Shown here: in pieces, positions 7,523-58,259 of the stretch | Numbering within the stretch: the stretch's first letter is position 1 | Layout of the letters: each line of letters opens with the position of its first letter | DNA from: Candidatus Omnitrophota bacterium | GTDB lineage: Bacteria > Omnitrophota > Gorgyraeia > Gygaellales > Profunditerraquicolaceae | Assembly: GCA_025453395.1 (NCBI GenBank) | Contig: JALOQK010000002.1 | Location: 241,102 to 305,101, forward strand | Length of the DNA stretch: 64,000 nucleotides | Reading direction: 5' to 3' | Notes under the pieces: model-generated | The model's database searches: none | Seen by the model: the letters and a program-made list of their open reading frames with translations, nothing else | Told to the model about the DNA's origin: nothing | Program-made: the position numbers and the translations under genes

Positions 7523-7599
7523 TGGTGACGGCGAGTGGATTCGGACCACTGACCGAGCGGGTATGAGCCGCTTGCTCTACCAGGCTGAGCTACGCCGTC
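7523..7599 (-). tRNA. tRNA-Met (anticodon CAT), with CCA encoded
   Basis: Minus-strand sequence GACGGCGTAGCTCAGCCTGGTAGAGCAAGCGGCTCATACCCGCTCGGTCAGTGGTCCGAATCCACTCGCCGTCACCA folds as a cloverleaf with a 7-bp acceptor stem and a GTCC/GAATCC T-arm. G1-C72 argues against an initiator tRNA. Confidence 0.85.
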
Positions 7600-8107: not shown

Positions 8108-9018
8108 TGGATGTTTTCTCCTACGCGGTATTGCATATCAACATTGCCGAAGCGCATGACTACGCAGTCTGGCTTGATCTGGGTTATAGTGCCTGCGCAG
8201 GTTTGATCATTGATATGGTAGATTATCCGGTCAATGAAAACAAATGGGCTTACCTGCGAGTAGAATATCGCGTCTATTCTGCAAGGCGCGCGCGGTTTGT
8301 CCTGCTGAGCAAGAAGAGTTTGGCTTAAAACGTCAATCCCCGAAGCCTCTTTAGCTTCAATGATATTTAAGGCGGATTCCGCCGCAAACTGGCGGGATTG
8401 TTTTATGATCTGCTGGTATTTGTATTCACAGTTTTTATCATTGGTGCCCAAAAGTTCTAATCTTTGCTCTAATGCCAACAGCTTCTGGTTATAGGATTGG
8501 ATAAGGTTGTATTTGGCATTTTTTAGCGCCTCTGATATCTGCGCAGGCAGATCTGCTGATATGGAAATAAACTTAATATCCTGGGTTATTTTCTCGCATT
8601 GTCCTATTGCTTGCTTGAGCATAAGATAAGCCTCTTTTGTCTCAAGGCGTTTTTGTCCCCATAAAGATATTGCTTCGTTTTGCCGGCTTAAGGCTTCTAG
8701 CGCCGGCTTTTCTACCGATGCCAAAGAATTTTCAAAGGCGATAATTTCATTTTGTATTTGCATTTTCGGCATAAAAGCGGGCCTTTCTTCTGGCTTTTGT
8801 TCCATACGTTTTTCTATTTGCTTGACTGTCCTTTCTATTGCTTCATCAATGCGCGCCTGTCTTTCGCGCAAGGTATTGATTGCCTGCTGTTTTGCGGAAA
8901 TATTTTCTACCATCTGCGGAATTGTGCTATTGAAATAATGCCAGAGAAATAGCCCTAATCCGGCAATTACGGCAAGCGTTAATAATGCGAAAATGATTTT
9001 TATCGGTTTTATCTGCAT
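8104..9018 (-). CDS. Membrane-anchored coiled-coil protein of unknown function
   Basis: N-terminal TM helix, long heptad-rich Q/E/K region, and a C-terminal domain of about 70 aa containing RAPCR...NDQTCAG (a weak PilZ-like RxxxR...DxSxxG echo). Confidence 0.5.
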   Translation of the reverse strand: MQIKPIKIIFALLTLAVIAGLGLFLWHYFNSTIPQMVENISAKQQAINTLRERQARIDEAIERTVKQIEKRMEQKPEERPAFMPKMQIQNEIIAFENSLASVEKPALEALSRQNEAISLWGQKRLETKEAYLMLKQAIGQCEKITQDIKFISISADLPAQISEALKNAKYNLIQSYNQKLLALEQRLELLGTNDKNCEYKYQQIIKQSRQFAAESALNIIEAKEASGIDVLSQTLLAQQDKPRAPCRIDAIFYSQVSPFVFIDRIIYHINDQTCAGTITQIKPDCVVMRFGNVDMQYRVGENIQ

Positions 9019-9395
9019 ATTTTAGGCAAAAAAAGTATCACTCCTACCGCTATGGCGTTTAACGAAGTAATCAAGACTACCGCGGCAGCGATGTCTTTGA
9101 TTAATTTTATCATAGGATTGTATTTTCTGGTAGCCATATCAAGCATCATTTCAATGGCGGTATTGAATATCTCTGCGACAAAAACAAGGGTTACCGCAAT
9201 AAAAATGGATACAAGTTCCATTCCCTTCAGCTTAAGCATGATCCCTAAAAGAAAAACGGCGATACCTGAAAGAAAAATAATGCGCATATTGCGGTGATAG
9301 ACAAACAGGTACGCTATGCCAGTTACTGCCAGGCGCATGCTTTCCCAGAAGCCGTGAAAACGAAAAATATGCCTTAATATTTTTACCCGCTTCAT
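9009..9395 (-). CDS. dgkA: Diacylglycerol kinase / undecaprenol kinase family (DgkA)
   Basis: Three TM helices and the conserved AEIFNTAIEMMLD motif of prokaryotic DgkA. Confidence 0.7.
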   Translation of the reverse strand: MKRVKILRHIFRFHGFWESMRLAVTGIAYLFVYHRNMRIIFLSGIAVFLLGIMLKLKGMELVSIFIAVTLVFVAEIFNTAIEMMLDMATRKYNPMIKLIKDIAAAVVLITSLNAIAVGVILFLPKICR

Positions 9396-10180
9396 TTTCT
9401 TAAATACGCCTCAAGGTATGAATCGCAATAGATATGCTTGTTCAGGATTAATTCAGTGGTAATGCTTGTGTCCATGAGCTGTTTGTCTTTTGGGTCTAAT
9501 ATTGCCGCGTCTAATCCGTAATTGATGGCCATGGTAAGGAAGGTGCGGTTTATCAGGCTTCTAAAATGTGCCCCCTGGGATACGTTGCTTAATCCGATTA
9601 TAGTTTTAGGCGAAGGCTCTGTAAGCATCTTAAACTCTTTTATAGATTCAAGTATTTCCTTCATCTGCTGTTGGGCGACATTTACCGGAAGCAGAATTGG
9701 GTCAATAAAAAGATCTTCAATGGGGAATCCCTGTTCTTGGCATGTGGATACGATAATAGCCGCTAATTCAAGGCGCTGGTCTTTATTTTGCGGTATGCCT
9801 TTTTGGCTTATGGTCAACCCGATTAATTTGGCGTTATGCTTTTTAGCCAAAGGGATAAACTTGTTAAGTTTTTCTGGATCAGAGGTAGTGGAATTAATAA
9901 TAGCCGGATTTTTCATCCGGGATAACCCGGCTTCAATTACTTCAAATCTGCTTGAATCAACAGCCAGCGGCTTATCAGTGACCTGTTGTATGGCGTCTAT
10001 AAGCCACTGGATATCTTCTTTGGGGTTTTTGGCGGTTGGGCCGCAATTTACGTCAAGCGCATCAGCGCCAGCTTGTATCTGCTCCAGGGCAATCCGTTGT
10101 ATCAGATCAATTTTTCTCTCGCGGATAGCAGCGGCTACATTTGAGTACATCCCGTTTATTAATTCTCCCACTATGAACAT
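9392..10180 (-). CDS. acsE: Methyltetrahydrofolate:corrinoid/iron-sulfur protein methyltransferase (AcsE-type pterin-binding MeTr)
   Basis: About 260-aa pterin-binding TIM barrel. The operon context (acsC and acsD) supports the call. Confidence 0.75.
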   Translation of the reverse strand: MFIVGELINGMYSNVAAAIRERKIDLIQRIALEQIQAGADALDVNCGPTAKNPKEDIQWLIDAIQQVTDKPLAVDSSRFEVIEAGLSRMKNPAIINSTTSDPEKLNKFIPLAKKHNAKLIGLTISQKGIPQNKDQRLELAAIIVSTCQEQGFPIEDLFIDPILLPVNVAQQQMKEILESIKEFKMLTEPSPKTIIGLSNVSQGAHFRSLINRTFLTMAINYGLDAAILDPKDKQLMDTSITTELILNKHIYCDSYLEAYLRK

Positions 10181-11085
10181 TAGTTTCCTCCATACATTGC
10201 GTCAATGTAGCTTTTGACTTTTGCGATAGATTCCGGATGGCGCATTACAAGGATATTCGCCCCTGCCTGAAGCAATGAGGTGGCGGTAATTACTTCCCAG
10301 GCAACGCCTTGATCTTTTATTTTGGCCTCTTTAGTTTTCCATGTCTCTTGCCCTACAAAACAAATAAACGGGCTTGCCACTGTTTTGTCTCCGGATAGGC
10401 CTGCAAGCCTGGCGCGCTCCATAATTGAATAGGCATACTCTAAGCCGTATCCTAAAGATCCGGTAGTAGGATTGATAACTATTCTGTCCAAACTTAACCC
10501 CATATCCGAAATAAGAATATTGAGCTGTTTGGCTATATTTATGTCAATGGGAGATTCCGCGATAATATTGTGGCCATCGGCTAATGCCGCAGCGGTTAAA
10601 GTTTTGTAGTTATCTTGAGTAACGCAACCCAAAAGGCAGCGCTTGGATTTTGTTTTTTCCGAACACAGGGGCAGCATTTGGTTATCCACAGCGTCGTCTC
10701 CGCAGCCCAGGATAATAAGCGGCAGATTAGTTTCTTTTATTATATCACAAGCAAGCTTCGCCTCTTGCTCTATTTTTATATTTCCCTGGTCCGGATGCGC
10801 GGCATAAAGCCTAAGGCAAAGAAGCTGTGCCTTATATTCTTTGGCGCATTTTTTCGCCCAGGCAATTGGATCTTTCAGGCAGTTTCCGTATATGCTTAAT
10901 AGCTCTTCAGGCCACTCTCTGGGAAACACATCCCAGATTTCATATGCCACAACCGGTTTATGCGGCAGAGAAGCCTCCTTAAATAAGAATGGCAGGGTTT
11001 TTTCTCCTCCCACGCTAATGGTATCCCCTATTCTTACTATCGCAACTTCGCCGGGCCATTTTTCAATCATTGCCTCTTGGGTCAT
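10180..11085 (-). CDS. acsD: Corrinoid iron-sulfur protein small subunit (AcsD / CdhD, CODH/ACS delta)
   Basis: About 300-aa CdhD-family TIM-barrel protein. It lies between acsE and cooC. Confidence 0.75.
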   Translation of the reverse strand: MTQEAMIEKWPGEVAIVRIGDTISVGGEKTLPFLFKEASLPHKPVVAYEIWDVFPREWPEELLSIYGNCLKDPIAWAKKCAKEYKAQLLCLRLYAAHPDQGNIKIEQEAKLACDIIKETNLPLIILGCGDDAVDNQMLPLCSEKTKSKRCLLGCVTQDNYKTLTAAALADGHNIIAESPIDINIAKQLNILISDMGLSLDRIVINPTTGSLGYGLEYAYSIMERARLAGLSGDKTVASPFICFVGQETWKTKEAKIKDQGVAWEVITATSLLQAGANILVMRHPESIAKVKSYIDAMYGGN

Positions 11086-11102
11086 AAAGATCTCCTGTTT
11101 AG

Positions 11103-11840
11103 TTAAATTATTTTGTCAGTTATTTGTTTTAAGGCTGTCAATGCTTGCGAATTGTTTTCAAGCGAGAAAACGCAACTAGCGTTAATGCCTATTTTTATTA
11201 ATTCGGCATCTTGCGGGATGTACCCTGCGATTTGCATGCCGGTAGTATTTTTAAGTATTATATTTTCATCAGCGCAGTTTAGAAGCAGCAATATCTTTTT
11301 TGTTTTTACTTTTAATTCTTTTACCAGTTCATTTACTCTCGCGGCAGCTTTCATGCTGACCGCATTTGGGTTTGCCAGAATAATCAAACTATCAGCATGG
11401 CGCGTGGTGCGCCGGGAAAAATGTTCCAGGCCTGCTTCGTTATCCATAATGACATAGTCATATTCAGCAACTAATTTGCCCATCATATTGCGCAAGAGAT
11501 TGTTCACGTAGCAGTAGCATCCCGGGCCTTCGGGCCTGCCCATAGTTAAAAGATCAAAACCCTCTTCTTCAGAAATAGCCGTGTGGATTTGGTATTCAAT
11601 GAAATTCTCTTTGCTGGTTCCGGCGGGGATCTTTTCCGGATGAGAAGATATCTCTTCTAATAGCGAGCCAATAGTTTTCCCCTCTTCAATCCCAAGCGCC
11701 TGTCCCAAATTGCTATTAGGATCAGCATCTATCGCTAAGATAGACCCGGATTTTCTTTCTTTTAATATCCTGACCAAAAGCGCAGCGATGGTGGTTTTTC
11801 CTGTGCCGCCTTTTCCTGATAACGCGATTATGTAACCCAT
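11103..11840 (-). CDS. cooC: CooC/AcsF-type Ni-insertion ATPase (MinD/ParA family)
   Basis: Deviant Walker A GKGGTGKTT and the CooC-characteristic CxC metal motif (EGPGCYCYVN). Confidence 0.8.
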   Translation of the reverse strand: MGYIIALSGKGGTGKTTIAALLVRILKERKSGSILAIDADPNSNLGQALGIEEGKTIGSLLEEISSHPEKIPAGTSKENFIEYQIHTAISEEEGFDLLTMGRPEGPGCYCYVNNLLRNMMGKLVAEYDYVIMDNEAGLEHFSRRTTRHADSLIILANPNAVSMKAAARVNELVKELKVKTKKILLLLNCADENIILKNTTGMQIAGYIPQDAELIKIGINASCVFSLENNSQALTALKQITDKII

Positions 11841-12131
11841 AAAATTAAAAATTTAAAATGAAAAATGTAAAATCAAAAGATAAAACCAAGAATATAATAT
11901 AGTGTTAAGAAATAAAAGCTTAGAATTCAAACAAGTGTGCGTTAAATAAATATTAAAAATCTATGATAAATCGTCCTGATTCTTTATTTTCTTGTTACTT
12001 CGCTATTTTTTATGATCTTTTTAATTTTTTGTATCTAGATTTTTAAATTTTAAATCTTTTCTTATCACTATCTTTAGCCGTTTCTTATACTTCTTTGTAT
12101 CTGTAGCTTTTTAATTTTGAATTGTTATTTT
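11841..12131. repeat. AT-rich intergenic repeat element, copy A. It has imperfect terminal inverted repeats and an internal direct repeat.
   Basis: The left arm aaaaatttaaaatgaaaaatgtaaaatcaaaag is approximately the reverse complement of the right arm gaattgttatttttcattttgaatttctcattttgaattttt. The internal direct repeat ttgtatctagatttttaaatttt (12027..12051) recurs as ttgtatctgtagctttttaatttt (12093..12118). Confidence 0.5.
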
Positions 12132-13979
12132 TCATTTTGAATTTCTCATTTTGAATTTTTCTAAGTCCGTATGCGGAAAGAATAATGCCGCCATATATTC
12201 TTCCATATATCCGGGTTGGTTAGACAGATCTATATATGTTGTTTTATTGGCTATTTCTAGAGATTTTGCTTTTGCCGGGATTGAAAAAATGATCTCCCTG
12301 GCTCCTCTAATGGAGCTGTTTCCGACAAACAGAAATTTGCCTTTTTCTAAATCTGGAAGCAGTCCTATTGCTATTGAGTCTTGAATGTCCAAATAAGTGC
12401 CAAAGCCTCCGGCAATAAAGAATTTGTGCACATCTTTAAAGGAAAATCCCATGTGTTTTATTAATGTTTCTGCCGCGGAATAAATCGCAGCTTTAGCGCG
12501 CTTAATATTCTCAATATCTGATTCGGTAATAATTATTTCTTCAGCTGCGTTGGATTGGCCCTGATGGCAGACAATAAAAGCTCTTCCCAGATCAGTATCT
12601 TTTATTTTTGAGGGGTTTTTAATCTGGATATTGCCTGCTTTGTCAATAATCCCTTTTTCCAGCATTTGGGCGATAAGCGAGATGTATCCAGACCCGCAAA
12701 TGCCTAAAGCCGGCACATCCCCGCCTATTATCTGAAAGCTTGTATCAAGGCTTCTGTTATCTATGGATACTTTTTGGATCGCCCCCCGAGAAGCGCGCAT
12801 GCCGCAGGATACTCCTGAGCCTTCAAAAGCCGGTCCGGCGCTGGCGGCACAAGATATCAGGAATTCTTTATTGCCAAGGACTATTTCTCCGTTTGTGCCT
12901 ATATCAATCAAGAGCGAAAGGTGTTCCTGTTGGTCTAATGAGCAAGCCAGTATTCCGCTTGTGATATCCCCTCCCACATAACTTGCTACTGCTGGTATGG
13001 GCATAAGTACGCCGCGCGGATTTATAATGATACCGGCTTCAACCGCATGTATAGACGGGAAAGAATTAGCTACGGGGGTATACGGGTCACGGCGGATAAA
13101 AGAAGGGTCGGTTTTTAAGAGGATATGCGTCATAGTGGTATTGCCGGCGCAGATTATAAAGTATACATTGTTTAAGTCTACCTGGTGCTGTTGGATCAAT
13201 TCCCGGATAATATCATTTATTTGCCCGGTAACAATACTGTGCAGTTTCTCTAACCCTTCAGAGTTCTTGGCAAAGATAATGCGGGTAATCACGTCACTGC
13301 CGAAACTGGCTTGCTTATTGTAACAGGCAGAAGCCCCCAATGACTTTCGGTTGTTTAGATCTACAAGCTCGCCGGTTATGGTAGTGGTTCCGATATCAAA
13401 ACAGAAACCGTAATTTTTGCTTGTTGTGTCACCCGGCTCTATGTGAATAACTTCAAATATTGTTTCCCTGTAAGCAAGGGTAATTGTAATTTGCCAGTTT
13501 GAATCTCTCAGAATTTCTGCGATTTGCCTTAAAGTAGTTATGCCTATAGTTATGCTTCCAAGGTTATATTTGTCTATTTCCCGCGTTATCCTTTCCCAAT
13601 CGCTTAAAGGGTCATTTGGCTTGGGCGCAGGCAATTTCAAAAATATTTTCTTAACCAGCGGTAATTGTTCAAAGCCGGTATTGCCCAAGGATATTTTAGA
13701 CAGTTCTATTTCCTGGGCATCGGTTTTTTCAAAGATCAATCTTGATTGTTCCGGTATTTCTACCTGCATATCTTCTTTTACTATGGTTAAGCAGGCAAGT
13801 TTAGATACGGAAATTCCTTTATCCTTGATGATCACTTTGCATTGCCCGCAGGTGCCTTCGCCTGCGCAGGCGGATTTAATATAGTTTGCGCAGGATATTG
13901 CCGCGGAAAGCACAGTTGTCCCCTTGGGGACTTCTACTGTTTTTCCTTCAGGGTAAAAAGTTACTTTACATTTATCCAT
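12132..13979 (-). CDS. Reductive activator of corrinoid iron-sulfur protein (RACo): [2Fe-2S] ferredoxin plus ASKHA ATPase
   Basis: N-terminal plant-type ferredoxin Cys pattern (CAGEGTCGQC...C) followed by an actin/HSP70-fold ATPase region. 615 aa, typical of RACo. Confidence 0.8.
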   Translation of the reverse strand: MDKCKVTFYPEGKTVEVPKGTTVLSAAISCANYIKSACAGEGTCGQCKVIIKDKGISVSKLACLTIVKEDMQVEIPEQSRLIFEKTDAQEIELSKISLGNTGFEQLPLVKKIFLKLPAPKPNDPLSDWERITREIDKYNLGSITIGITTLRQIAEILRDSNWQITITLAYRETIFEVIHIEPGDTTSKNYGFCFDIGTTTITGELVDLNNRKSLGASACYNKQASFGSDVITRIIFAKNSEGLEKLHSIVTGQINDIIRELIQQHQVDLNNVYFIICAGNTTMTHILLKTDPSFIRRDPYTPVANSFPSIHAVEAGIIINPRGVLMPIPAVASYVGGDITSGILACSLDQQEHLSLLIDIGTNGEIVLGNKEFLISCAASAGPAFEGSGVSCGMRASRGAIQKVSIDNRSLDTSFQIIGGDVPALGICGSGYISLIAQMLEKGIIDKAGNIQIKNPSKIKDTDLGRAFIVCHQGQSNAAEEIIITESDIENIKRAKAAIYSAAETLIKHMGFSFKDVHKFFIAGGFGTYLDIQDSIAIGLLPDLEKGKFLFVGNSSIRGAREIIFSIPAKAKSLEIANKTTYIDLSNQPGYMEEYMAALFFPHTDLEKFKMRNSK

Positions 13980-13982
13980 GTA

Positions 13983-15326
13983 TTATCCAGCAGAGTAGTT
14001 CTTTAAGAAAGCTGGCAGACCCGATGCTTCTTTTGGGCCCACGGTTATTTTCCAACCGGATTTTTCTTCCAGCTCTCCGCTTAAAACTGCGACATAACCG
14101 GGTATGATCAGGTTTTTATGCGATACAGCTTTATCGGCATTAAGCTTAATAAGGGCGTTAGCTATTTTCTCCGGGGTAAATTTCTCCGCCGCCCAGGCAG
14201 TTAAGACCGACATGCCTTCCGTATCCATGCTTATTATGTGCGAGGGGATTTTGCTGGCTTCTACCTCTCCCAGGACCGTGTAATAACTAAGCGAGAAATT
14301 TGTGGTGATCATGATCGGAGATTTGACAGTGGCATTTCCTATGGTGTAGATTTTTGGTTCAATCTGAAGAGGCTTTTGCGGATCGGTATAAATATTTTGC
14401 CTTAAGGTTAAAAGCGACAGGGCCTCCCACGCAAGCGCATGTTTCAATAAAACAATACCGGAATATTTACAGATGTAGGTTGCCGCTTCCATGATTTCAT
14501 CAAGGGGATCGGCCTTGTTGATAGTTACTATTGCGGGATATCCTAATAAGCGGTTTGATTTTTTAAGCGCCTGGCGGCGGATTTGGGTTAAGTCCCAGAG
14601 TTTTTCCCGGGTATTCTTATCTCCAGAATCAATAATCAGATCGTTAAGCCCTGCCTTGGCCAGGCTTTCAGTTTTAGCTGCCGCCTCTTCTATTGTTCCG
14701 GCCTTAACTACCATAGCAAGCTTGTTTTCTTTGGCTAAGGCAGCTGCTTCTTGGCTAATATTTTCATCCGGATAAATAAGCGGCTTTTGATCTTTGCTTA
14801 TTTTTATAGCCTGTTCCAAAGAAGCTATGTCGCTTACCATTAAAACTATGGCCAATTTTGTATTTTTTAAAGCCGTCTGCACTAATTTGATGAAATTTTG
14901 CAGGCAGCCGGTTTGCTTTAGGGCGATTAAATTAACTTCTAATTTTTGCCCTACGCGCTCAAATACAAAACTATTTATTTTATTGATCTGATGCAATATC
15001 TCTGTTTCTTTTAAAGTGTCTTCTAATATTATGCCGATTCCGCAAGGATTGTGGAACTTTTCTTCATGCCGGAACAAGACGCTTTCATTGCCAATATCAA
15101 GTTTATTTTCGCCTGTCCCGATGGATACTAATTTTATTGGAGGCTGGGAAGATTCTTCAAGTATTTTCTTTGATTCATTGGATAAAAACGGGCACTTATC
15201 GATGCTTATCCCCTTTTTTGCTAATTGCATGGCAAAGGCAAGGCAGGTTGCGATGCCGCATTGCCGGCAATTTGTTTTAGGCAATAACTTATAGATGTCT
15301 AATCCCGAAAGCGCCATAATTAACAA
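13983..15326 (-). CDS. acsC: Corrinoid iron-sulfur protein large subunit (AcsC / CdhE, CODH/ACS gamma)
   Basis: N-terminal [4Fe-4S] motif CRQCGIATC...C, a TIM barrel, and a C-terminal B12-binding Rossmann domain. 447 aa. Confidence 0.8.
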   Translation of the reverse strand: MLIMALSGLDIYKLLPKTNCRQCGIATCLAFAMQLAKKGISIDKCPFLSNESKKILEESSQPPIKLVSIGTGENKLDIGNESVLFRHEEKFHNPCGIGIILEDTLKETEILHQINKINSFVFERVGQKLEVNLIALKQTGCLQNFIKLVQTALKNTKLAIVLMVSDIASLEQAIKISKDQKPLIYPDENISQEAAALAKENKLAMVVKAGTIEEAAAKTESLAKAGLNDLIIDSGDKNTREKLWDLTQIRRQALKKSNRLLGYPAIVTINKADPLDEIMEAATYICKYSGIVLLKHALAWEALSLLTLRQNIYTDPQKPLQIEPKIYTIGNATVKSPIMITTNFSLSYYTVLGEVEASKIPSHIISMDTEGMSVLTAWAAEKFTPEKIANALIKLNADKAVSHKNLIIPGYVAVLSGELEEKSGWKITVGPKEASGLPAFLKNYSAG

Positions 15327-15516
15327 CTCCTTTTAAAAATGAACTTTGTTAAAGATTAAACGTGAAAAATGCAAAATTAAAATTCAAAACTAAAAATTAA
15401 ATCCAAAAAATAAGTAAGATATTATTCACTGCGTGTATTTTATTATATTTGTGGTCTTTTTTGCTTTTAATTTTAAATTATAATTTTACGCTTTTAGTTT
15501 TTAATTTTTAGTTTCC
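15327..15516. repeat. AT-rich intergenic repeat element, copy B
   Basis: Shares the gaaaaatgcaaaattaaaa and gcttttaattttaaatt motifs with copies A and C. Internal inverted symmetry (aaaactaaaaattaaa versus tttaatttttagttt). Confidence 0.45.
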
Positions 15517-16188
15517 TTATTTGTTTATCAAGTTAGCGAAATATCCCGCGCCAAAACCGTTATCAATATTTACTACCGTTATCCCAGCGGAACAGGCGTT
15601 TAACATGGTAAGCAGCGCCGATAGCCCTTGGAAACTGGCTCCGTATCCGCAGCTTGTGGGAACAGCAATAACCGGAGATTTTACTAAGCCGCTGACCAAG
15701 CTTGCTAACGCCCCCTCCATGCCCGCCACAACAATAATAACATTTGCCTGCTTGATTATATCAATATTAGAAAAAAGACGGTGTACTCCAGCTACCCCAA
15801 CATCGTAAAGCCTTTTTACTTTACTGCCGCCTATTTCCGCGACGATGGCGGCTTCTTCAGCTATCGGGATATCTGAAGTGCCGGCGCATACAACGGCAAT
15901 AATTTTGTGTTTTTTGACAGGTTTATTAAAAGTTATGAAAGCAAGCCTTGCTTCGCCGCTGTATTTTAAAGAAGGGTAGAATTTTTTAAGGTAAGAAAAT
16001 TTATCCCTGTCAAGGCGGGTTAAGATGACATCTTCCTTATTCTTTAAAAGGGCCGCGGTAATTTCTTTAAGCTGTTTTTTATTCTTGCCCGGTGAATATA
16101 CCGCCTCAGGATAACCCCTTCTTTGCCTTCTATTTGTATCCAGTTTTGCAAAGCCTAAATCGCAAAAGCCGGAATTTTCACAATTCAT
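15517..16188 (-). CDS. LarB-like PurE-family protein (nickel-pincer nucleotide cofactor biosynthesis carboxylase/hydrolase homologue)
   Basis: LarB N-terminal motif DTNRRQRRGYPEAVYSPGK and a PurE-like core (VVAGMEGALASLVSGL...PTSCGYG...NIDNGFGAGYFA). Confidence 0.65.
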   Translation of the reverse strand: MNCENSGFCDLGFAKLDTNRRQRRGYPEAVYSPGKNKKQLKEITAALLKNKEDVILTRLDRDKFSYLKKFYPSLKYSGEARLAFITFNKPVKKHKIIAVVCAGTSDIPIAEEAAIVAEIGGSKVKRLYDVGVAGVHRLFSNIDIIKQANVIIVVAGMEGALASLVSGLVKSPVIAVPTSCGYGASFQGLSALLTMLNACSAGITVVNIDNGFGAGYFANLINK

Positions 16189-16192
16189 TTAG

Positions 16193-16525
16193 TTAATATC
16201 CTCGCAAAATCACTAAGATAATCAATACGATCAGGATAGTGCTTAATATGTAAAAATCGTTGAAATACAAAAAGTCGCTTATTCTTTCTTTTAAGCAGTA
16301 TCCGCTGTAAGAAGGTTGTTTATTAAGCAGGTTTTTGTTTTTTTGGCGGTATTCTTCTACCTGATGGCGCTTAAACCTAAGGTATACCCCTGCTATTTTA
16401 TAGGCAGGGATTTCGCCTTTTTCCGCCAGCTCAATAACTTCTTTTTCTGTTACTCCCAGCGCAATAGAAACATCTCTTATGGTAATAAGTTTTTCGTCAG
16501 CCATTTTTATATAGATATTGTACAT
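16193..16525 (-). CDS. Excisionase-family HTH DNA-binding protein with a C-terminal TM helix
   Basis: The HTH ITIRDVSIALGVTEKEVIELAEKGEIPAYKIAGVYLRF matches the excisionase/MerR-type helix-turn-helix. The C-terminus ILSTILIVLIILVIL is hydrophobic. Confidence 0.55.
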   Translation of the reverse strand: MYNIYIKMADEKLITIRDVSIALGVTEKEVIELAEKGEIPAYKIAGVYLRFKRHQVEEYRQKNKNLLNKQPSYSGYCLKERISDFLYFNDFYILSTILIVLIILVILRGY

Positions 16526-16615
16526 TAGCCGATTGAAAAACCCGGCTAATCATCAACTTTAACAAGCCCAGACCAAGATTCGGGGTAGTCGCGGTTGATT
16601 TTGTTAAAAGAAAGG

Positions 16616-17119
16616 TTACTTTCCGATTTTTCCTGATGCTATCCAGGAGTCAATAGCTTTCCTGTCGAATCTCCAGCCTTCTCCTTCTTTGATTGCGGGT
16701 ACTTTTCCGGAATTGGCCCATTCTAATATGGAATTTAAATCAACTTCAAGGTACCGCGAAAGCTCATCTGTATTCAGAAAATCGTGCAGCATCATGCATT
16801 TGCCTTCTAGTATCGCGCCTTCGGCCACATTTAATTTTGCCGGGTAGATATCGCCTTCTACAAGCGCTGATGGCAGAAGGGTTAATCTTTCCCTGGCGGT
16901 AATATGCCCCTTGACTTTCCCCCCAACAATAACGTTATCCCCGATTATATCCGCGCAGACAACCGCAGTTTGGCCTATGGTTAAATTTCCTTTTATTTCC
17001 AGGTTGCCTTCAAACCTGCCATTGATGCGTAAATTTACCGGTTCCTTAAAGCTTAATGACCCTTGCATTGCTGCGTCCACATCAAGGATTTTTTCTTCTT
17101 GTTTCTTTTTAAAGGCCAT
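16616..17119 (-). CDS. Bactofilin-domain protein fused to a C-terminal excisionase-type HTH
   Basis: Residues ~25-115 show a bactofilin beta-helix repeat pattern (NLEIKGNLTIGQTAVVCADIIGDNVIVGGKVKGHITA...VEGDIYPAKLNVAEGAILEG). The C-terminal ELSRYLEVDLNSILEWANSGKVPAIKEGEGWRFDRKAIDSWI is paralogous to the HTH of the upstream gene. Confidence 0.65.
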   Translation of the reverse strand: MAFKKKQEEKILDVDAAMQGSLSFKEPVNLRINGRFEGNLEIKGNLTIGQTAVVCADIIGDNVIVGGKVKGHITARERLTLLPSALVEGDIYPAKLNVAEGAILEGKCMMLHDFLNTDELSRYLEVDLNSILEWANSGKVPAIKEGEGWRFDRKAIDSWIASGKIGK

Positions 17120-23872: not shown

Positions 23873-26800
23873 ATGAAAAAGCCAAGCTTTCAACTTTCTA
23901 AAACCGGCGAATTTGTCATCACAAACTATAATCACGCCAAGCCTTTTGCCAATTTCTTTCCCGCGATAGCGGGTTGTTTTGGCATTCCCATTTGGGTTTT
24001 CTACGTTAATCGCGGGCAGTGCATCGCCAGCCTAGGCACTAAAGATAAGGACCACGCCATAATGGAGTTCTCGCCTGCCAATAAAGCCTGGCAGCATACC
24101 TCTTTGCAGGGGTTTCGCACTTTTTTGAAGATAAGCCGCGGTAAAAGCAATCTTTTTTATGAGCCGTTCCACAATGGATTCTCTAATTTGCCATATACAA
24201 TAGAGAACAAAATGAAGGTATCCTCCTATGGTTTAAAAATAGAAGAAACAAACTATACTTTAGGCGTTCAAACCGAAGTAGAATATTTTACCCTGCCCAA
24301 CGACAGCTTTGGCGCTTTAGTGCGCGCTGTTACCATACGCAATATCTCAAAAAGAAATCAGCATATTCAGATGTTAGACGGTGCTTCCCAGATAATACCG
24401 TTTGGAATGAATAACTGGCTGATGAAAGAAATGAGCCGCACTATTGAAGCCTGGATGGTGGTTGATAATTTAAAGCAAAAGGCCGCATTCTTGCGGCTTC
24501 TTGTTGACCCCTCTGACCGCCCGGAAGTAACCCACATAAAAGAAGGTAATTTTTATTTTGGCGCAACTGATGAAAATTCCCAGATGCTTCTTTTAGACCC
24601 GATAGTTGACCCGGATGTTATTTTCGCAGAGGTAACCGACTTCTCTTGCCCGGCATCTTTTTTGCGCGGCAAAGATTTCCTCCCGGATCTTTCAAGACAG
24701 GCTGTAAAAAATAAGATCCCCTGCGGTTTTATCCACAGCGCATTTAATCTTAAAACCAATGAAGATAAGATATTTTATTCCATGCTGGGGTATGCTTTTA
24801 ACGTGGATGCCTTAAACAAGGCATTGAAGCGTATGCTCAGTCCGGGATATTTAAGCCGTAAGCGCGATGAAAATCAAGCTATTATTAGCGGCATTACTCA
24901 GATGATTGAAACAAAAAGTTCTTCCTTGGCTTTTGACTTTTATGCCAAGCAGACTTTTCTGGATAATATTATGCGCGGTGGGCTGCCTCTTACCTTAGAA
25001 ACCGGGGATAAAAAGCATATTTTTTACCTGTATTCGAGAAAACACGGAGATCTGGAGCGCGATTATAATCGTTTCCAAATTCAGCCGACCTATTTCTCCC
25101 AGGGCAATGGTAACTACCGCGATATCAACCAAAACCGACGTCTTGACTGCTGGTTTAACCCGCTGGTAAAGGAAAACAATATCGTTTCTTTCTTGAATCT
25201 GATTCAAACTGACGGGTTTAACCCTTTAGTGGTTAAGGGCGTAAGTTTTCTTATCCAAGATCAGGATCTGCTTCGATCACGATTAAAATCTTTTGTGCGG
25301 GGAGAAGATGAAAAAACCCTGATTGATTTCTTTGCCAAGCCGTTTACCCCTGGAGACCTGGCTCAGCTTATACTGGAGAAGGATATCAAGCTTTTTTCTT
25401 CTTTAGAAAATTTTATCGGCCAGATACTATCTTTGTCGGTTGAGTATCAAGAGGCTGAACATGGCGAAGGTTTCTGGATTGACCACTGGGCGTATAATCT
25501 GGACCTTCTGGAAAATTATTTCTCCATGTATCCCGAAGACAAATTAAATTTATGTTTTGAAAAGAAAATCTTTACTTTTTTTGATAATAGCGAGGTGGTT
25601 AAGCCGCGCGCTGAGAAATACCTGCTTTATCACGGACAGCCAAGGCAATTACACTGCGTGGGAGTTGATTCCCATAAAAAAGAATTGATCAAAAAGCGCC
25701 ATAGCCTTTCCCACGCAATGCACTCTGGATATGGAACAGCAGATATTTATACCACCAGCCTCTTTGCTAAGCTTTTGTGCTTGTTCGTGAATAAAATGTC
25801 CTCTCTTGACCCGTTTGGGGCAGGCATTGAAATGGAAGCAAATAAACCCGGCTGGTATGATGCCTTAAACGGGCTTCCGGCTTTATTTGGCTCATCATCC
25901 TGCGAGACCTTTGAATTAAAGCGCCTGATCCTCTTTTTAAAGGATATCGTGGATCTGGGGCCTAACATGAGAATACAGATTTCGGAAGAAGTAATTGATT
26001 TTATCTTTAGCCTTGACCCTATTATAAAAGAAAGCCTGCAGAGCGATTCCAATGAAAAAGACTATGTCTATTGGGATAAGGCAACCAGCCTTAAAGAGGC
26101 TTACCGTAAAAAGACCATTCTTGGATTTAGCGGAAATGATATTCAGATCTTAGCAAAAGATGTATTGCCTGTTTTGGATAATGCCTTAAAGAAAATTGAC
26201 TCGGCTATTAACAAGGCCTATGATCCTAAAGCAAAGATGTACTACGCGTATTTTATGCACGAGGTAGTTGAATTTTCCCAGTTGGAGCATGGGTTTATCA
26301 AGCCGCTTAAGTTCAGGCAAATAAGATTGCCCTTTTTCTTGGAATCTCAAGTGCACGCTTTGCGATTAGCTTCTGATGAAAAGCAGGCTCGCCAATTGCA
26401 TCAGGCAGTTATGAAAAGCGCTCTTTACGATAATAAACTTAAAATGTATAAGGTAAACGCCCCGTTATCTGCTATGCCTGAAGAAATCGGCAGATGCCGC
26501 GTGTTTACTCCCGGCTGGCTTGAAAATGAATCTATATGGCTGCATATGGAGTATAAGTATTTGCTTGAACTCTTAAAGCAGGGGCTTTATGATGAATTTT
26601 ACGCTGATTTTAAGAATGTGCTGATCCCCTTTCTTGACCCTTTTGTCTATGGAAGAAGTATATTAGAAAATTCTTCTTTTATCGTGGGAAGCGCCTATTT
26701 TGACAAAAAATTACATGGAGCTGGTTTTGTGGCGCGGCTATCCGGCTCAACGGCAGAATTTTTGCAGATCTGGCTTTTAATCAATACCGGCAAACAGCCA

Positions 26801-27097
26801 TTCTTTATGGATAACAAAGGCCAGCTTGCTTTACGTTTTCAGCCCGCGCTTGAGGCTTGGATGTTTGATAAAAAAACCGGCAGTTATTCTTTTAAATTTT
26901 TGAATAAAACTATGGTTACTTATCACAACCCAAAAAGAAAGAATACCTTTGGGGCAAATATGGCGCAGGTTAAGAAAATCACCTTCCTTGATAAAAATGC
27001 CAAACTTATAGAAATAGAATCATCTTTTATCTGTCCGCCTTACGCCGAACAAATCAGGTCCTGCCAAATTGGGAAAATAGACATCTATTTAGGATAA
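23873..27097 (+). CDS. Large cytoplasmic GH94-like glycoside phosphorylase superfamily protein (1074 aa)
   Basis: This is the only plus-strand gene. The N-terminus GEFVITNYNHAKPFANFF parallels cellobiose-phosphorylase EYVITxPxTPxPWxNYL. GNGNYRDINQN parallels GMGFRDSNQD, and GWYDALNG parallels the catalytic-region WNDCLN. No signal peptide. Confidence 0.5.
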   Translation: MKKPSFQLSKTGEFVITNYNHAKPFANFFPAIAGCFGIPIWVFYVNRGQCIASLGTKDKDHAIMEFSPANKAWQHTSLQGFRTFLKISRGKSNLFYEPFHNGFSNLPYTIENKMKVSSYGLKIEETNYTLGVQTEVEYFTLPNDSFGALVRAVTIRNISKRNQHIQMLDGASQIIPFGMNNWLMKEMSRTIEAWMVVDNLKQKAAFLRLLVDPSDRPEVTHIKEGNFYFGATDENSQMLLLDPIVDPDVIFAEVTDFSCPASFLRGKDFLPDLSRQAVKNKIPCGFIHSAFNLKTNEDKIFYSMLGYAFNVDALNKALKRMLSPGYLSRKRDENQAIISGITQMIETKSSSLAFDFYAKQTFLDNIMRGGLPLTLETGDKKHIFYLYSRKHGDLERDYNRFQIQPTYFSQGNGNYRDINQNRRLDCWFNPLVKENNIVSFLNLIQTDGFNPLVVKGVSFLIQDQDLLRSRLKSFVRGEDEKTLIDFFAKPFTPGDLAQLILEKDIKLFSSLENFIGQILSLSVEYQEAEHGEGFWIDHWAYNLDLLENYFSMYPEDKLNLCFEKKIFTFFDNSEVVKPRAEKYLLYHGQPRQLHCVGVDSHKKELIKKRHSLSHAMHSGYGTADIYTTSLFAKLLCLFVNKMSSLDPFGAGIEMEANKPGWYDALNGLPALFGSSSCETFELKRLILFLKDIVDLGPNMRIQISEEVIDFIFSLDPIIKESLQSDSNEKDYVYWDKATSLKEAYRKKTILGFSGNDIQILAKDVLPVLDNALKKIDSAINKAYDPKAKMYYAYFMHEVVEFSQLEHGFIKPLKFRQIRLPFFLESQVHALRLASDEKQARQLHQAVMKSALYDNKLKMYKVNAPLSAMPEEIGRCRVFTPGWLENESIWLHMEYKYLLELLKQGLYDEFYADFKNVLIPFLDPFVYGRSILENSSFIVGSAYFDKKLHGAGFVARLSGSTAEFLQIWLLINTGKQPFFMDNKGQLALRFQPALEAWMFDKKTGSYSFKFLNKTMVTYHNPKRKNTFGANMAQVKKITFLDKNAKLIEIESSFICPPYAEQIRSCQIGKIDIYLG

Positions 27098-27239: not shown

Positions 27240-30053
27240 TTAAAATTTTCTGCGGTAATAGAGGCGTACTATATGGCGGGTATCTAAGACAGAATACCCT
27301 CCTGAGAATGGATCGTAAGATTTTATAGCTGACGGGGTTATTCCTCCATCGCCATATTGCATAATAAGCTCATCGTCAATTGAAGCAGCATATCTTGCTT
27401 CGGCAAAGAAATTATGGTGGCCTAAGTAAACCTTATTTTCTCCATCAAGCATTCTGTTCACGTCGTTCCAGCGTGAATAGGTGTAACGCAAAAAGAAGTT
27501 AAGCTTCTTAGTCGGCAGGTACGCTAATTCCATGCCTATGTGGTTGATGTTGTTATCAATCCCGCCGGCGCTTTTAAATTCATTGCGCGTGTAATCAAGG
27601 TAGATTTGCATTTGATCGCTTGGTTTAAGCTTTAAGCCTGTTTTCCAAATATCATAAAAAGGATAAGGCGGTAACGGAAATAACCCCTGGCTGTAAAGCG
27701 AGTTTAATTCCTCGCGGTATTTATTTCCGTATTCATAATAAGTGGTGCCTAAATTAGCATTACTAAGCAGGCTTCTTGGAAAATTATCATAAGCTAAAGT
27801 ATAGTCGTTTGTATGTTCCCAGATACCGGATAAAGAAACCCCATCAAAAAACTCGTATTCTAAACCCAGGGATCCGGTTTTTAATGAAGGGTCCTTGCCA
27901 TCAGTTATAGAAGAGTTGCTAATGTATTCTCCGGTGTTAGGATCAGTTATAAATGGGTCTATGCCGTTTTTAGTCTTAGGAAGATACTGATAAATCCCCA
28001 GCAGTTTTGTAGTCAGGCGCTGGTTTATCTTATAGGTAAATTCATCACGGGCAACAGTCTCCACTTGCTTGCCGTTAGTTTTATGCACATTTCTGACATC
28101 TAACAAATTATTCGCGCTATTATCAAAAAATGTATTTTCTACGCGCGCGCCTACCGCGTCCCTTCCGATATCAACACCATCGCCTATTTTATAAGGTTCG
28201 ATGTCTTCCCAGGTATTTGTGGGCTTGTATAGACCGGTATAATAATAATCGAATGGTTTCTGAAAATGCAGATGGCGCGACCAAAAGGCGTCATTGCGCG
28301 TTTGATGATAATTAGAAAGTTTAGTGTCAAACCCTTCATCCATATGCGTAAAGAATAATCTGTATCTGCAAAACGCCTCATCGCCTTCCTGCGGCTTCAT
28401 GCCGTAATAGCCGTATTCCTGGTTCATGATGCTTCTTCCGGAGAAATTACCGATCAATGATAAATGGTAGGCATTGCCCCGGTAGCTTGATTTATAAGTT
28501 TCATTGCTTAGATCCTGGCGCGTTTTAGAGGCAGCCGCCTGCATATATGTTTTAACTCCGTCTGTAATCTCATATTCGGTATCAACCGAATATACATAAT
28601 TTACCATATCTTCCCGTTGGCCGGAATCAAAGCCCATGCGGTAAGTCAAGGTGGAGCCGATATTGAAATTATCCGCCATATGATATTTCAGGCGCGTGGC
28701 ATTGATAATATTGTTGATATAGCTGTAATCTTCCCAAAGTGTTTTAGGAGCAGCAATCGTGGAATCAATAGACAGGTTATCGATTGTGCTTAATGAAAGG
28801 CTGGCGCCGCGCAAATTAGTAAGCCTTGTCCCGTCTGAATCACGCACCAAATAGGCCAGAGAATCGTCCATGCCGCCTTTAGTAAAATCAGAAACCCCAT
28901 CGTTATATTCACCTTGCCTCCAGGCGTCAATCCATGGGCTTTCTTGCCACCAGATATGGTTGTTGGAAAGCTTCAGCGGATCATCTGATGTATAAGCCTG
29001 GTCCTGATAAGCTATGGGGAACACGCGTAATTTTATCCCTTCTTGCTTGTAATCCGCCCAGAATTCGCGCAGCGGCTGAAAGTAAGCGTTAATCTTCTTT
29101 GAAGGAATGATAAAGGTGTCGTGTAATCCGGTGCCAACATCAGCAAAAGCGCCAAGTACCGTGGCTTGGCTTGTGCTGCCGCTATGGACTTTTAATTCCG
29201 GCAGGCTTAATGAATTTCCATTTTGTAAGGTGTAGATAGTTTGCGCCAGAGTGTAATTGGTGTTTCCTAGATATAATAATTGCATCTGGGCGGGATCACC
29301 CCAGCCGCTTGTCACGGTGAACTTATCGCTTTTACCGATATAACTCCACGGGTCAGCGGTAATATTGCCATGGAAGTTCAAGCCTTCTTTATTTTGAGTA
29401 TCTAAATTAACCCTTAAGCGGTCATATACGCGCGTGTCAAAGGTATTAGCCTTGCGGTTATACCCGGCAGTAGAAAGTATTCTCCAGTTTTTTTCATCCA
29501 AATCAGCGTTGGCCCTGTTGACTATAAAATCATCAGTATCCGCCCCCAGAGAAATCTGGGCTTCTCCCTCAACAGCAATATTGCCTACCTTAAGTTCTTC
29601 TTTCTGGGTTTCGGTATCTAATGCGGTTTTATCTTTCGCGGCGTAATAAGGGCTTGCGTAAGCAAGCTGTGTTTTTGCCTGATCCGGCTGTTCTTTGGGG
29701 ATCGTTTTGTCTAAAGAATCTAGCAAGCGGGCCATTTCCTTTTCTCTTTTTACGGAATCTTCAAATTCTAACGCTTTATCCGAATGTAGCTTATTGGTTT
29801 TGGCTTGCGCGGCAGAACCTTGCGCGGGGGCATTGATCTTAGCGATATAATAATTGGCGGTTTGATTATCTGGTTCTAGTATAAGGACTTTTGAGAATTC
29901 TCTAAGTGATGCAGTAAAATCTCCCTGATTATAGTATTTTACCCCATTCTGGCAGAGATACTCTGCGGCCATACTTTGAGAATAGCCTAAATTTGCTATT
30001 CCCTGCAAGATAAAAGCTATTATGAATATTTTAGCAAAGTTTTTCTTCATCAA
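27240..30053 (-). CDS. Large secreted outer-membrane beta-barrel-like protein (937 aa) with an N-terminal TPR motif
   Basis: Signal peptide MMKKNFAKIFIIAFILQGIANLGYS. A TPR-like segment (GDFTASLREFSKVLILEPDNQTANYYIAK). The rest is rich in Y/N/T/G with amphipathic beta-strand patterns and ends in YRRKF (C-terminal Phe, the OM-insertion signal). Confidence 0.6.
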   Translation of the reverse strand: MMKKNFAKIFIIAFILQGIANLGYSQSMAAEYLCQNGVKYYNQGDFTASLREFSKVLILEPDNQTANYYIAKINAPAQGSAAQAKTNKLHSDKALEFEDSVKREKEMARLLDSLDKTIPKEQPDQAKTQLAYASPYYAAKDKTALDTETQKEELKVGNIAVEGEAQISLGADTDDFIVNRANADLDEKNWRILSTAGYNRKANTFDTRVYDRLRVNLDTQNKEGLNFHGNITADPWSYIGKSDKFTVTSGWGDPAQMQLLYLGNTNYTLAQTIYTLQNGNSLSLPELKVHSGSTSQATVLGAFADVGTGLHDTFIIPSKKINAYFQPLREFWADYKQEGIKLRVFPIAYQDQAYTSDDPLKLSNNHIWWQESPWIDAWRQGEYNDGVSDFTKGGMDDSLAYLVRDSDGTRLTNLRGASLSLSTIDNLSIDSTIAAPKTLWEDYSYINNIINATRLKYHMADNFNIGSTLTYRMGFDSGQREDMVNYVYSVDTEYEITDGVKTYMQAAASKTRQDLSNETYKSSYRGNAYHLSLIGNFSGRSIMNQEYGYYGMKPQEGDEAFCRYRLFFTHMDEGFDTKLSNYHQTRNDAFWSRHLHFQKPFDYYYTGLYKPTNTWEDIEPYKIGDGVDIGRDAVGARVENTFFDNSANNLLDVRNVHKTNGKQVETVARDEFTYKINQRLTTKLLGIYQYLPKTKNGIDPFITDPNTGEYISNSSITDGKDPSLKTGSLGLEYEFFDGVSLSGIWEHTNDYTLAYDNFPRSLLSNANLGTTYYEYGNKYREELNSLYSQGLFPLPPYPFYDIWKTGLKLKPSDQMQIYLDYTRNEFKSAGGIDNNINHIGMELAYLPTKKLNFFLRYTYSRWNDVNRMLDGENKVYLGHHNFFAEARYAASIDDELIMQYGDGGITPSAIKSYDPFSGGYSVLDTRHIVRLYYRRKF

Positions 30054-41440: not shown

Positions 41441-41608
41441 TTAATACTAGGTTAATTAAAAATTTAAAGTGTAAAATTAAAAATTACAGCGTAAAATCTA
41501 AAACTTTGAAAACAAAAAGCTTAAAGCGCAAAATGATAAGCAAAATTAGAAATTTTGAATTTTACTCTATACTTTTAGGCTTTTCGCTTTACGTTTTTAG
41601 TTTTTAAA
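41441..41608. repeat. AT-rich intergenic repeat element, copy C
   Basis: Shares gtaaaat-containing motifs (aaagtgtaaaattaaaaattacagcgtaaaatctaaaac) and a right-arm motif cgctttacgtttttagtttttaaaat, similar to cgcttttagtttttaatttttag in copy B. Confidence 0.4.
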
Positions 41609-42039
41609 ATAGCAGGTAAAATAAGCCGGGTTCTGTATAATTGTGGCCATTTCTCTAGTCCTTAAAGCCTTACAGCAAAGGATCAAGCAGCCTACCCGCC
41701 CGGCTTCCTCAAAATCAGAGGCATCGACTGGGACTTCTCCGTCCTATCTTTCGATAGGAACGCCGGGCCTATTTGGCCTTGCTCCACGTAGAGATTGCTC
41801 GTTTCACCCCCCGCCGCTTTGCTTCGCTTTGCGAAGCAAAGCGGCGCCAATACTGGAAAAACCAGCTTAAGCGGCGGGATCCTAAAATTAAGGATATCCT
41901 ACTCAAAATTAATTGAGTGATGGGCGTTGCCCACTACGTTTACCCTGCGGAGCCCGGACTTTCCTCCCCCCCGCTGTTTTGCTTTTGCAAAAGCAAAAGC
42001 AAAACAAGACGCGGGGGCAGCCACATTTTACCTGCTATC
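41609..42039 (-). ncRNA. rnpB: RNase P RNA, bacterial type A
   Basis: Minus-strand sequence carries the universally conserved GGAGGAAAGUCCGGGCUCC (P4 5' half) and ACAGAACCCGGCUUA (P4 3' half). P1 is formed by 5' AGCAGGUAAAAU and 3' AUUUUACCUGCU. There are extended GC-rich hairpins (the UUUUGCUUUUGCAAAAGCAAAA and GCCGCUUUGCUUCGCAAAGCGAAGCAAAGCGGCGG inserts). The ends are approximate, within about 5 nt. Confidence 0.85.
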
Positions 42040-43171: not shown

Positions 43172-43196
43172 AACCGCATCCTTTTCTTTATATATA

Positions 43197-43270
43197 TGGG
43201 CGCAATAGGACTTGAACCTATGACCTCTACAATGTGAATGTAGCGCTCTAACCAACTGAGCTATGCGCCC
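43197..43270 (-). tRNA. tRNA-Val (anticodon CAC)
   Basis: GGGCGCATAGCTCAGTTGGTTAGAGCGCTACATTCACATTGTAGAGGTCATAGGTTCAAGTCCTATTGCGCCCA folds as a cloverleaf with anticodon loop TTCACAT. CCA is not encoded. Confidence 0.9.
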
Positions 43271-43272
43271 GA

Positions 43273-43345
43273 TGGGCCCACAGGGATTTGAACCCCGGGC
43301 CAAGTGATTATGAGTCACCTGCTCTAACCACTGAGCTATGGGCCC
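43273..43345 (-). tRNA. tRNA with CAT anticodon, tRNA-Ile2 (lysidine)-like rather than elongator Met
   Basis: GGGCCCATAGCTCAGTGGTTAGAGCAGGTGACTCATAATCACTTGGCCCGGGGTTCAAATCCCTGTGGGCCCA is nearly identical in D-arm and anticodon arm (GGyGA-CUCAUAA-UCrCU) to the E. coli ileX tRNA. It lies 2 nt from tRNA-Val. Confidence 0.8.
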
Positions 43346-43418
43346 TAAAACAGGCAAAAAAGTATAATTACAGAGAATAATAATTATATCATACAAAGGA
43401 AAAGCTTCAAAGGGATTT

Positions 43419-52179: not shown

Positions 52180-52236
52180 ATTTATAATTATTTAATACCT
52201 CTTAACCCTGTTTGTCAAGTTTATTTTGTAATGCCT

Positions 52237-52764: not shown

Positions 52765-52767
52765 ATT

Positions 52768-57026: not shown

Positions 57027-57049
57027 TTTTTCCTCCTGGAATATGGCAA

Positions 57050-58258: not shown

Positions 58259-58259
58259 G

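Follow-up and report, generated by a model that had tools for sequence, protein, structure and literature searches.

A corrinoid protein gene module in an Omnitrophota contig

Five co-directional open reading frames (ORFs) on the minus strand occupy positions 9392-15326 of the 64-kb stretch of DNA analyzed here (the window), which is the reverse complement of approximately 40.7-104.7 kb of contig Ga0392394_0000003 (346,222 bp) from the Joint Genome Institute (JGI) metagenome 3300037461. Head to tail, these genes are acsC, RACo, acsF, acsD, and acsE, that is, the corrinoid-protein (methyl-handling) half of the gene cluster for the carbonyl branch within the Wood-Ljungdahl pathway (WLP). The same genes were also found on short Logan contigs from SRR12684589.

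The gene acsC (13983-15317, minus strand; 444 aa) codes for the large subunit of CFeSP, the corrinoid iron-sulfur protein. Its product scores 535 bits against NF003195 (cutoff 306), also matches PF04060 and PF03599, and aligns over its full length (residues 1-440) with 2H9A_A (426 bits). It contains the three parts that define the CFeSP large subunit, namely, the N-terminal [4Fe-4S] cysteine motif, in which Cys17, Cys20, Cys25, and Cys42 are all present, the TIM barrel, and the C-terminal cobamide-binding domain. The start of acsC is most likely the ATG at 15317 rather than the TTG at 15326, because a Shine-Dalgarno sequence (AAGGAG) lies 8 nt 5' of the ATG; the JGI gene call likewise gives a protein of 444 aa.

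The next gene (12132-13979, minus strand) encodes the 615-aa ATP-dependent reductive activator of the corrinoid protein (RACo, also known as AcsV or Orf7). The RACo architecture comprises a 2Fe-2S ferredoxin domain, a linker, a middle domain, and an ASKHA ATPase domain; all four parts were detected above the respective cutoffs, the N-terminal ferredoxin domain by PF00111/PF13510 and the others by PF17650, PF17651, and PF14574, and the protein matches PDB 3ZYY over residues 3-609 with 509 bits. RACo is followed by the gene for an AcsF-type P-loop ATPase of the CooC family (11103-11840, minus strand; 245 aa), with the deviant Walker A motif GKGGTGKT and a metal-binding CxC motif (C108-Y-C110). 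The best match of this ATPase among solved structures is CooC1 (3KJE, 87 bits), with the CxC motifs aligned; it matches only generic Pfam and NCBIfam models (CbiA/AAA_31), and no curated model separates AcsF from CooC.

The last two genes encode the CFeSP small subunit, AcsD (10180-11085, minus strand; 301 aa), and the methyl-tetrahydrofolate:CFeSP methyltransferase (MeTr), AcsE (9392-10180, minus strand; 262 aa). AcsD is recognized as the small TIM-barrel subunit by NF003376 (378 bits, cutoff 280) and by its match to 2H9A_B (286 bits). AcsE, a pterin-binding TIM barrel, scores 294 bits against NF005719 (cutoff 259), and its residues 1-259 align without gaps with the Moorella MeTr (2E7F, 264 bits); the residues that bind methyl-tetrahydrofolate, D75, N96, D160, N199, and R207 in the numbering of the Moorella MeTr, are all conserved. 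Each of the five proteins matches a solved Carboxydothermus or Moorella protein over the full length. An earlier reading of the same DNA, made from the sequence alone (hereafter, the original prediction), had named these five genes, the CxC motif of the CooC-like protein, and the flanking genes dgkA and larB; family scores, full-length structure matches, and conserved residues bear out all of these assignments, and AcsC, AcsD, and AcsE, for which the family thresholds had been singled out as the point to check, all score above them.

The order of the five genes is exactly that of the 3' part of the classical acs cluster of Firmicutes, cooS-acsB-acsC-(unassigned)-cooC-acsD-acsE (PMC8671834), and for this reason, the established function of CFeSP, MeTr, RACo, and AcsF is the one best supported for the module.

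Absence of ACS and CODH genes from the window and from related loci

The region read around the window comprises positions 31,331-113,946 of the contig (82.6 kb, the window with 10 kb on each side, 24% of the contig). Among the genes called in this region, Pfam annotation detected neither acetyl-CoA synthase (ACS; PF03598) nor carbon monoxide dehydrogenase (CODH; PF03063), and tblastn with Moorella AcsB, a query validated against PDB 1OAO (1696 bits, full length), produced no match in the window. The statement in the original prediction that acsA and acsB are missing from the window therefore stands; its claim that they are missing from more than 40 kb on either side of the module does not, because on the dgkA side the window extends for only 9.4 kb (about 20 kb with the contig extension).

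To place the module in its evolutionary context, we used AcsC relatives from a scan of one genome per species of the Genome Taxonomy Database (GTDB), which identified 238 relatives, of which the best 80 were analyzed. These proteins are 58-66% identical to AcsC of the window, and almost all come from metagenome-assembled genomes (MAGs) of Candidatus Omnitrophota. The relatives UBA6253, UBA1562, and UBA6233 are classified in Velamenicoccia, Gygaellales, Profunditerraquicolaceae (GTDB Koll11/GIF10/UBA6249). The host of the module is an uncultured member of Candidatus Omnitrophota with affinity to the class Velamenicoccia/Koll11 and, judging by the identity of at most 66% between its AcsC and that of any GTDB species, represents a new lineage.

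The gene block TsaD-MgtC-bactofilin-helix-turn-helix (HTH) protein-LarB-AcsC-RACo-AcsF-AcsD-AcsE-DgkA recurs in about 80 Omnitrophota species. Counted over the loci that were long enough to judge, with up to 10 kb of flanking sequence on each side (tblastn with the window proteins), RACo is present in 69 of 69, AcsD in 59 of 59, AcsE in 53 of 53, AcsF in 57 of 65, LarB, upstream of acsC, in 69 of 75, and TsaD in 58 of 60; dgkA lies downstream of acsE in 32 of 50. An AcsB gene within 10 kb of the module was found by tblastn in none of the 80 related loci (0/80). Accordingly, acsB adjoining acsC, the arrangement that marks a complete bacterial CODH/ACS cluster, occurs neither in the window nor in the 82.6-kb region nor in any of the 80 related loci. 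Because the loci of the relatives lack AcsB in the same manner, the orphan appearance of the module is the standard layout of the clade and not a peculiarity of this genome.

AcsB of the Omnitrophota relatives is encoded at a second conserved locus

A homology search with Moorella AcsB returned only Firmicutes proteins. An exhaustive HMMER search of cluster representatives, complemented by a cluster look-up, identified a 717-aa protein (denoted P0140) that contains PF18537, PF19436, and PF03598 and is named by NCBI as a Candidatus Omnitrophota protein. P0140 has 436 relatives at E<1e-50; the best 120 were listed, and most of the named ones among the matches listed are labeled Omnitrophota. Further AcsB genes were located in at least 120 metagenome loci with a degenerate DNA pattern for an AcsB motif specific to Omnitrophota.

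The genomic context of these genes is conserved. At all six AcsB places annotated with Pfam, the gene order is TGT-TrmD-L19-RNase HII-UPF0102-FchA-FolD-MetF-(sometimes Pyr_redox_2)-AcsB-TPR-PolA-GlgA-CoaE-Rho, which in Pfam terms corresponds to FTCD_C-FolD-MTHFR-AcsB-TPR-PolA around AcsB itself. Among the metagenome loci that could be evaluated, MetF is encoded directly upstream of AcsB in 58 of 58, and PolA downstream in 31 of 35. In one MAG, SO_2017_GW1_22, both loci reside on a single contig of 922,655 bp, with the acsC module at 406-428 kb and the AcsB gene (P0324) at 702-725 kb, on the same strand and about 295 kb away. The same spacing and orientation in the window genome would put acsB beyond the start of the contig, so that the absence of this gene from the readable part of the contig carries little weight.

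Among the loci listed, the contiguous form of the cluster was found in only two metagenome contigs, L201 (acsB-acsC-RACo-acsF-acsD-acsE) and L128 (metV-metF-acsB-acsC-RACo-(DUF6036-domain ORF, no acsF)-acsD-acsE), both of which encode an AcsC about 53% identical to that of the window. No CODH gene lies beside AcsB at the six annotated places, in L201, or in L128.

This lack of adjacent CODH genes bears on a further possibility, namely, that the cluster is split and AcsB is encoded elsewhere, but the genome has no CODH at all, in which case CO2 would not be fixed, and the pathway would use external CO or run in reverse, cleaving acetyl-CoA. A genome of this kind would fit with the single CooC-family gene seen, in the acsF position. 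It would also fit with the survey of Omnitrophota by Seymour et al. (2023, PMC10066038), which, in the parts of the text and source data covered here, reports 24 species without AcsA and CooS/F, a set that includes members of Profunditerraquicolaceae, and interprets the 24 as CO-dependent; external CO use is proposed there for Velamenicoccus archaeovorus. However, the same parts of the survey report CooS/F in 19 other species, some of which also belong to Profunditerraquicolaceae, and the position of MetF directly upstream of AcsB (58 of 58) weakens the argument that acetyl-CoA cleavage is required as a source of methyl-tetrahydrofolate. We therefore regard the complete absence of CODH as a tentative option, one that might apply to this genome but is not the favored expectation.

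A comparable case is Dehalococcoides mccartyi, which reportedly combines AcsB and CFeSP without a CODH subunit, as may be the case here too, and raises the same question of the direction of flux. In D. mccartyi, which reportedly has an incomplete WLP without MetF, acetyl-CoA cleavage supplies methyl-tetrahydrofolate. Unlike this bacterium, the Omnitrophota relatives of the window carry metF immediately upstream of acsB.

The AcsB proteins of Omnitrophota vary in domain composition. Most of those among the matches listed are 840-868 aa long and extend about 125 aa further at the N-terminus than Moorella AcsB; AcsB forms of 726 aa are accompanied by a separate gene just upstream that encodes a 289-aa Pyr_redox_2 protein; and in some proteins of 1029 aa, the Pyr_redox_2 domain is fused to AcsB (examples of these variants are P0324, P0388, and P0298; L214:9147-10016; and P0312 and P0367). 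These arrangements suggest that AcsB, in a clade often devoid of CODH, has a flavoprotein as its partner. In L128 (3223-7008), a 1261-aa AcsB is interrupted by an intein (PF14890 Intein_splicing and PF14528 LAGLIDADG) in the C-terminal A-cluster domain.

A probable split Wood-Ljungdahl gene cluster

Taken together, these observations point to the window carrying one half of a split WLP cluster, with the partner AcsB encoded elsewhere in the genome, downstream of fchA-folD-metF; we put the probability of this interpretation at roughly 0.8. The step from the relatives to the window organism, that is, the presence of AcsB in its own genome, is itself quite probable. The simplest history starts from a contiguous (metF)-acsB-acsC-orf7-acsF-acsD-acsE cluster, which would have been severed between acsB and acsC in the ancestor of the clade that includes the window organism. 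Each half now sits within a block of housekeeping genes of conserved order.

By analogy with the Moorella and Carboxydothermus proteins, AcsE would transfer the methyl group of methyl-tetrahydrofolate to the Co(I) cobamide of the AcsC/AcsD CFeSP, and RACo would draw on ATP and on its 2Fe-2S cluster to reduce cobamide again once it has lapsed into the Co(II) state. Encoded in the acsF position, the CooC-family ATPase would load nickel into the partner enzyme, and AcsB would join the methyl group from CFeSP with CO and CoA or catalyze the reverse reaction. In this lineage, AcsB would be supplied from a locus hundreds of kilobases away from the module, directly downstream of fchA-folD-metF. Judging by gene position, the client of the ATPase is likely the A-cluster of AcsB and not CODH, because the gene occupies the acsF position and is kept in L201, where acsB is present and no CODH gene adjoins it.

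The original prediction had described an incomplete module without CODH/ACS catalytic subunits nearby, of a kind said to run methyl transfer or acetyl-CoA cleavage without CO oxidation in a few lineages, and had argued that CooC implies a nickel enzyme partner elsewhere in the genome. The latter argument is supported by the relatives, which carry AcsB at another locus. The former is not: the layout is standard in about 80 species, AcsB is encoded at the second locus, and AcsB is reported for the group in the parts of the survey covered here (PMC10066038), so that the incomplete appearance is most probably an artifact of viewing a single window. As the alternative to its own reading, the original prediction had considered an ordinary split WLP cluster with acsA-acsB immediately outside the window; at the level of the lineage, a split cluster is indeed what is seen, but with acsB far away rather than just beyond the window.

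Several observations weigh against a split cluster of the standard kind in this organism. AcsB of the window genome itself is absent among the best 120 of the 436 P0140 relatives, the six annotated AcsB places, and the at least 120 loci found with the DNA pattern, the latter in a metagenome collection that may not include sample 3300037461. The window organism is an outlier, its nearest AcsC neighbor being 66% identical compared with a median of 78% among the relatives, and in view of this divergence, AcsB could have been lost specifically in this lineage; an organism this divergent would also be expected far down in listings sorted by similarity. The module is also not invariant, given that the acsF/cooC-like gene is missing between RACo and acsD in 8 of 65 relatives. 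Finally, the window proteins score below the cutoffs of acetogen-specific NCBIfam models: 594 bits against AcsV (NF040756; exception-level cutoff 800), 240 against WLP_AcsD (cutoff 430), and 177 against CODH_ACS_meth (NF040758, for AcsE; cutoff 370). Because these three models are missed although the general family thresholds are passed, the module proteins constitute a subfamily of their own, separate from the acetogen clade of Firmicutes and from the biochemically studied proteins.

If both AcsB and CODH were lost, MeTr, CFeSP, RACo, and the CooC-like ATPase would have been kept for another task, such as methyl transfer to a different acceptor or nickel enzyme, or as a methyl-cobamide buffer. 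The lack of ACS and CODH genes in the 82.6-kb region, the absence of an AcsB of this sample from the matches listed, and the divergence of the organism from its relatives would all agree with such a loss; moreover, CFeSP-like proteins serve other acceptors elsewhere, for instance, HgcA, the model of which (NF040863) weakly matches the C-terminal domain (62 bits). Nevertheless, we consider a true orphan module very unlikely. Little can be concluded from absence in 24% of a single contig when acsB lies about 295 kb away in a relative, a spacing that, with the same orientation, would take it off this contig; the relatives examined share the orphan-looking layout in a phylum in which AcsB genes nonetheless number in the hundreds and occupy a fixed second locus; the AcsF-type nickel insertase has been kept intact; and AcsB-E are reported in Profunditerraquicolaceae in the parts of the published survey covered here (PMC10066038). 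The specific version in which an outlier lineage without AcsB and CODH uses the corrinoid protein to feed methyl groups to an unknown, possibly nickel-dependent acceptor appears highly improbable.

Intergenic spacers and neighboring genes

The packing of the module is operon-like. The gap between acsC and RACo is 3 nt, that between acsF and acsD is 17 nt, the start of acsE overlaps the stop of acsD by 1 nt, and the start of dgkA overlaps the stop of acsE by 4 nt. The exception is the spacer between RACo and acsF (11841-12131), which is 291 nt long, AT-rich (GC 0.20), and A-rich, then T-rich on the coding strand; in the relatives, the corresponding gap is at most 161 nt long, with a median of 19 nt. 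The folding of this spacer is no better than that of shuffled sequence (z -0.48), and it is possibly an insertion or an internal promoter. In the relatives that lack acsF (L018, L032, L042, L043, L051, L073, L078, and L084), the gaps between RACo and acsD range from 31 to 338 nt.

A second AT-rich spacer, of 199 nt (15318-15516; GC 0.19), is located 5' of acsC and is a candidate promoter region. It contains two minus-strand sigma-70-like matches (10/12; 15504-15477 and 15470-15442) and likewise folds no better than shuffled sequence. The counts of promoter-like and terminator sequences in 8800-16800 equal the shuffled expectation and provide no evidence on co-transcription. A riboswitch or another structured RNA in the long spacers was considered and rejected, there being no Rfam match at the gathering threshold in the module, for the window and nine relatives.

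Upstream of the 199-nt spacer lies larB (15517-16188, minus strand), the gene for the nickel-pincer cofactor carboxylase/hydrolase (NF033503, 288 bits, cutoff 175), which is the conserved upstream neighbor of the module. In 39 of the 80 relatives, a gene for an FmdE-domain protein of about 140 aa (PF02663; for example, L009:9559-9978 and L014:7803-8240) is inserted between larB and acsC; the window has no FmdE-domain gene at this position, which is occupied by the spacer. None of larC, larE, and larA was seen in the 82.6-kb region. We did not adopt a functional connection of larB with the module, because the whole block from TsaD to DgkA is syntenic, which makes adjacency alone uninformative, and the two nickel-related functions may stand side by side simply through synteny. 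If AcsB and CODH had indeed been lost, this neighboring nickel-pincer cofactor gene would gain relevance. On the other side of the module, dgkA (9009-9395, minus strand) is identified by PF01219 (92 bits).

The AT-rich spacers that the window genome has gained, together with its loss of the FmdE-domain gene carried by half of the relatives, could be taken as signs that the module is decaying and no longer functional, a relic in a genome reduced to about 1.6 Mb, and Omnitrophota genomes are described as reduced in the parts of the survey covered here (PMC10066038). Against this, none of the five ORFs is truncated, each one matches a solved structure from end to end, the catalytic and cofactor residues that were checked are all intact, and about 80 species share the gene order and, at 50-70% identity, the sequence, a degree of conservation that implies purifying selection. 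We consider decay of the module to be extremely improbable.

Other features of the window

Apart from the module, the only cobamide-related gene in the window encodes a corrinoid adenosyltransferase of the CobA/CobO/BtuR type (PF02572; 49020-49520), directly downstream of a secretin gene. A type II secretion/type IV pilus-like cluster (49541-59972) encodes a secretin, a GspE/MshE ATPase, GspF, a GspG-like pseudopilin, and several pseudopilins of the N_methyl type and also includes five ORFs without a Pfam match; such a cluster would fit the lifestyle of attachment to hosts that has been proposed for Omnitrophota.

Two large convergent ORFs, at 23873-27097 (plus strand, 1074 aa) and 27240-30053 (minus strand, 936 aa), have no Pfam match. 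The 1074-aa ORF is the only sizeable plus-strand gene in the 64 kb, about 60 others all being on the minus strand. The RNA genes, all on the minus strand, include a class A RNase P RNA (141 bits; 41606-42037), two adjacent tRNAs (43197-43345), and one further tRNA (7526-7599). The tRNA pair overlaps a listed ORF of 313 aa (42455-43396), which is therefore probably spurious in part.

Relationship to known systems and implications

The module is a textbook set of CFeSP, MeTr, RACo, and AcsF and closely resembles the acs cluster of Moorella thermoacetica, Carboxydothermus hydrogenoformans, and other Firmicutes, with the same five genes in the same order and orientation, full-length homologues, and catalytic residues kept. 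In Moorella, the same gene order is found in Moth_1197-1204. Unlike in Firmicutes, acsA and acsB are detached from the window module, the proteins fall below the acetogen NCBIfam cutoffs, and the module resides between larB and dgkA in a housekeeping gene block. The subunits AcsC and AcsD are also homologous to the corrinoid subunits CdhE/CdhD of the archaeal acetyl-CoA decarbonylase/synthase (ACDS), and their top names in NCBIfam read 'ACDS complex subunit gamma/delta'. In contrast to the archaeal system, the window module is of the bacterial type, with a separate AcsE MeTr, RACo, AcsF, and an AcsD of 301 aa; the score of the TIGR00381 model (cdhD), 178 bits, falls short of its cutoff of 253.

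Partial Wood-Ljungdahl pathways in Omnitrophota have already been published. In the parts of the survey covered here, Velamenicoccia/Gorgyraia, including Profunditerraquicolaceae, are reported to encode AcsB-E and the methyl branch without formate dehydrogenase, with or without AcsA/CooS (Seymour et al. 2023, PMC10066038). The window comes from the same phylum and carries the same gene set, and its relatives UBA6253, UBA1562, and UBA6233 belong to Profunditerraquicolaceae. Gene presence is what these parts of the survey report (main text matches, supplementary text, and part of source data 6), and the two-locus layout was not found in them; the addition made here is descriptive and consists of this layout of the acs genes.

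Thus, the acs genes of these bacteria are distributed between two conserved loci, larB-(fmdE)-acsC-RACo-acsF-acsD-acsE and fchA-folD-metF-acsB. As a consequence, a single window or a short contig judged alone would produce false orphan modules in this phylum. The presence of CODH would decide between CO2 fixation, CO scavenging, and acetyl-CoA cleavage in these ultra-small and possibly parasitic cells, a question for the whole genome rather than for this locus.

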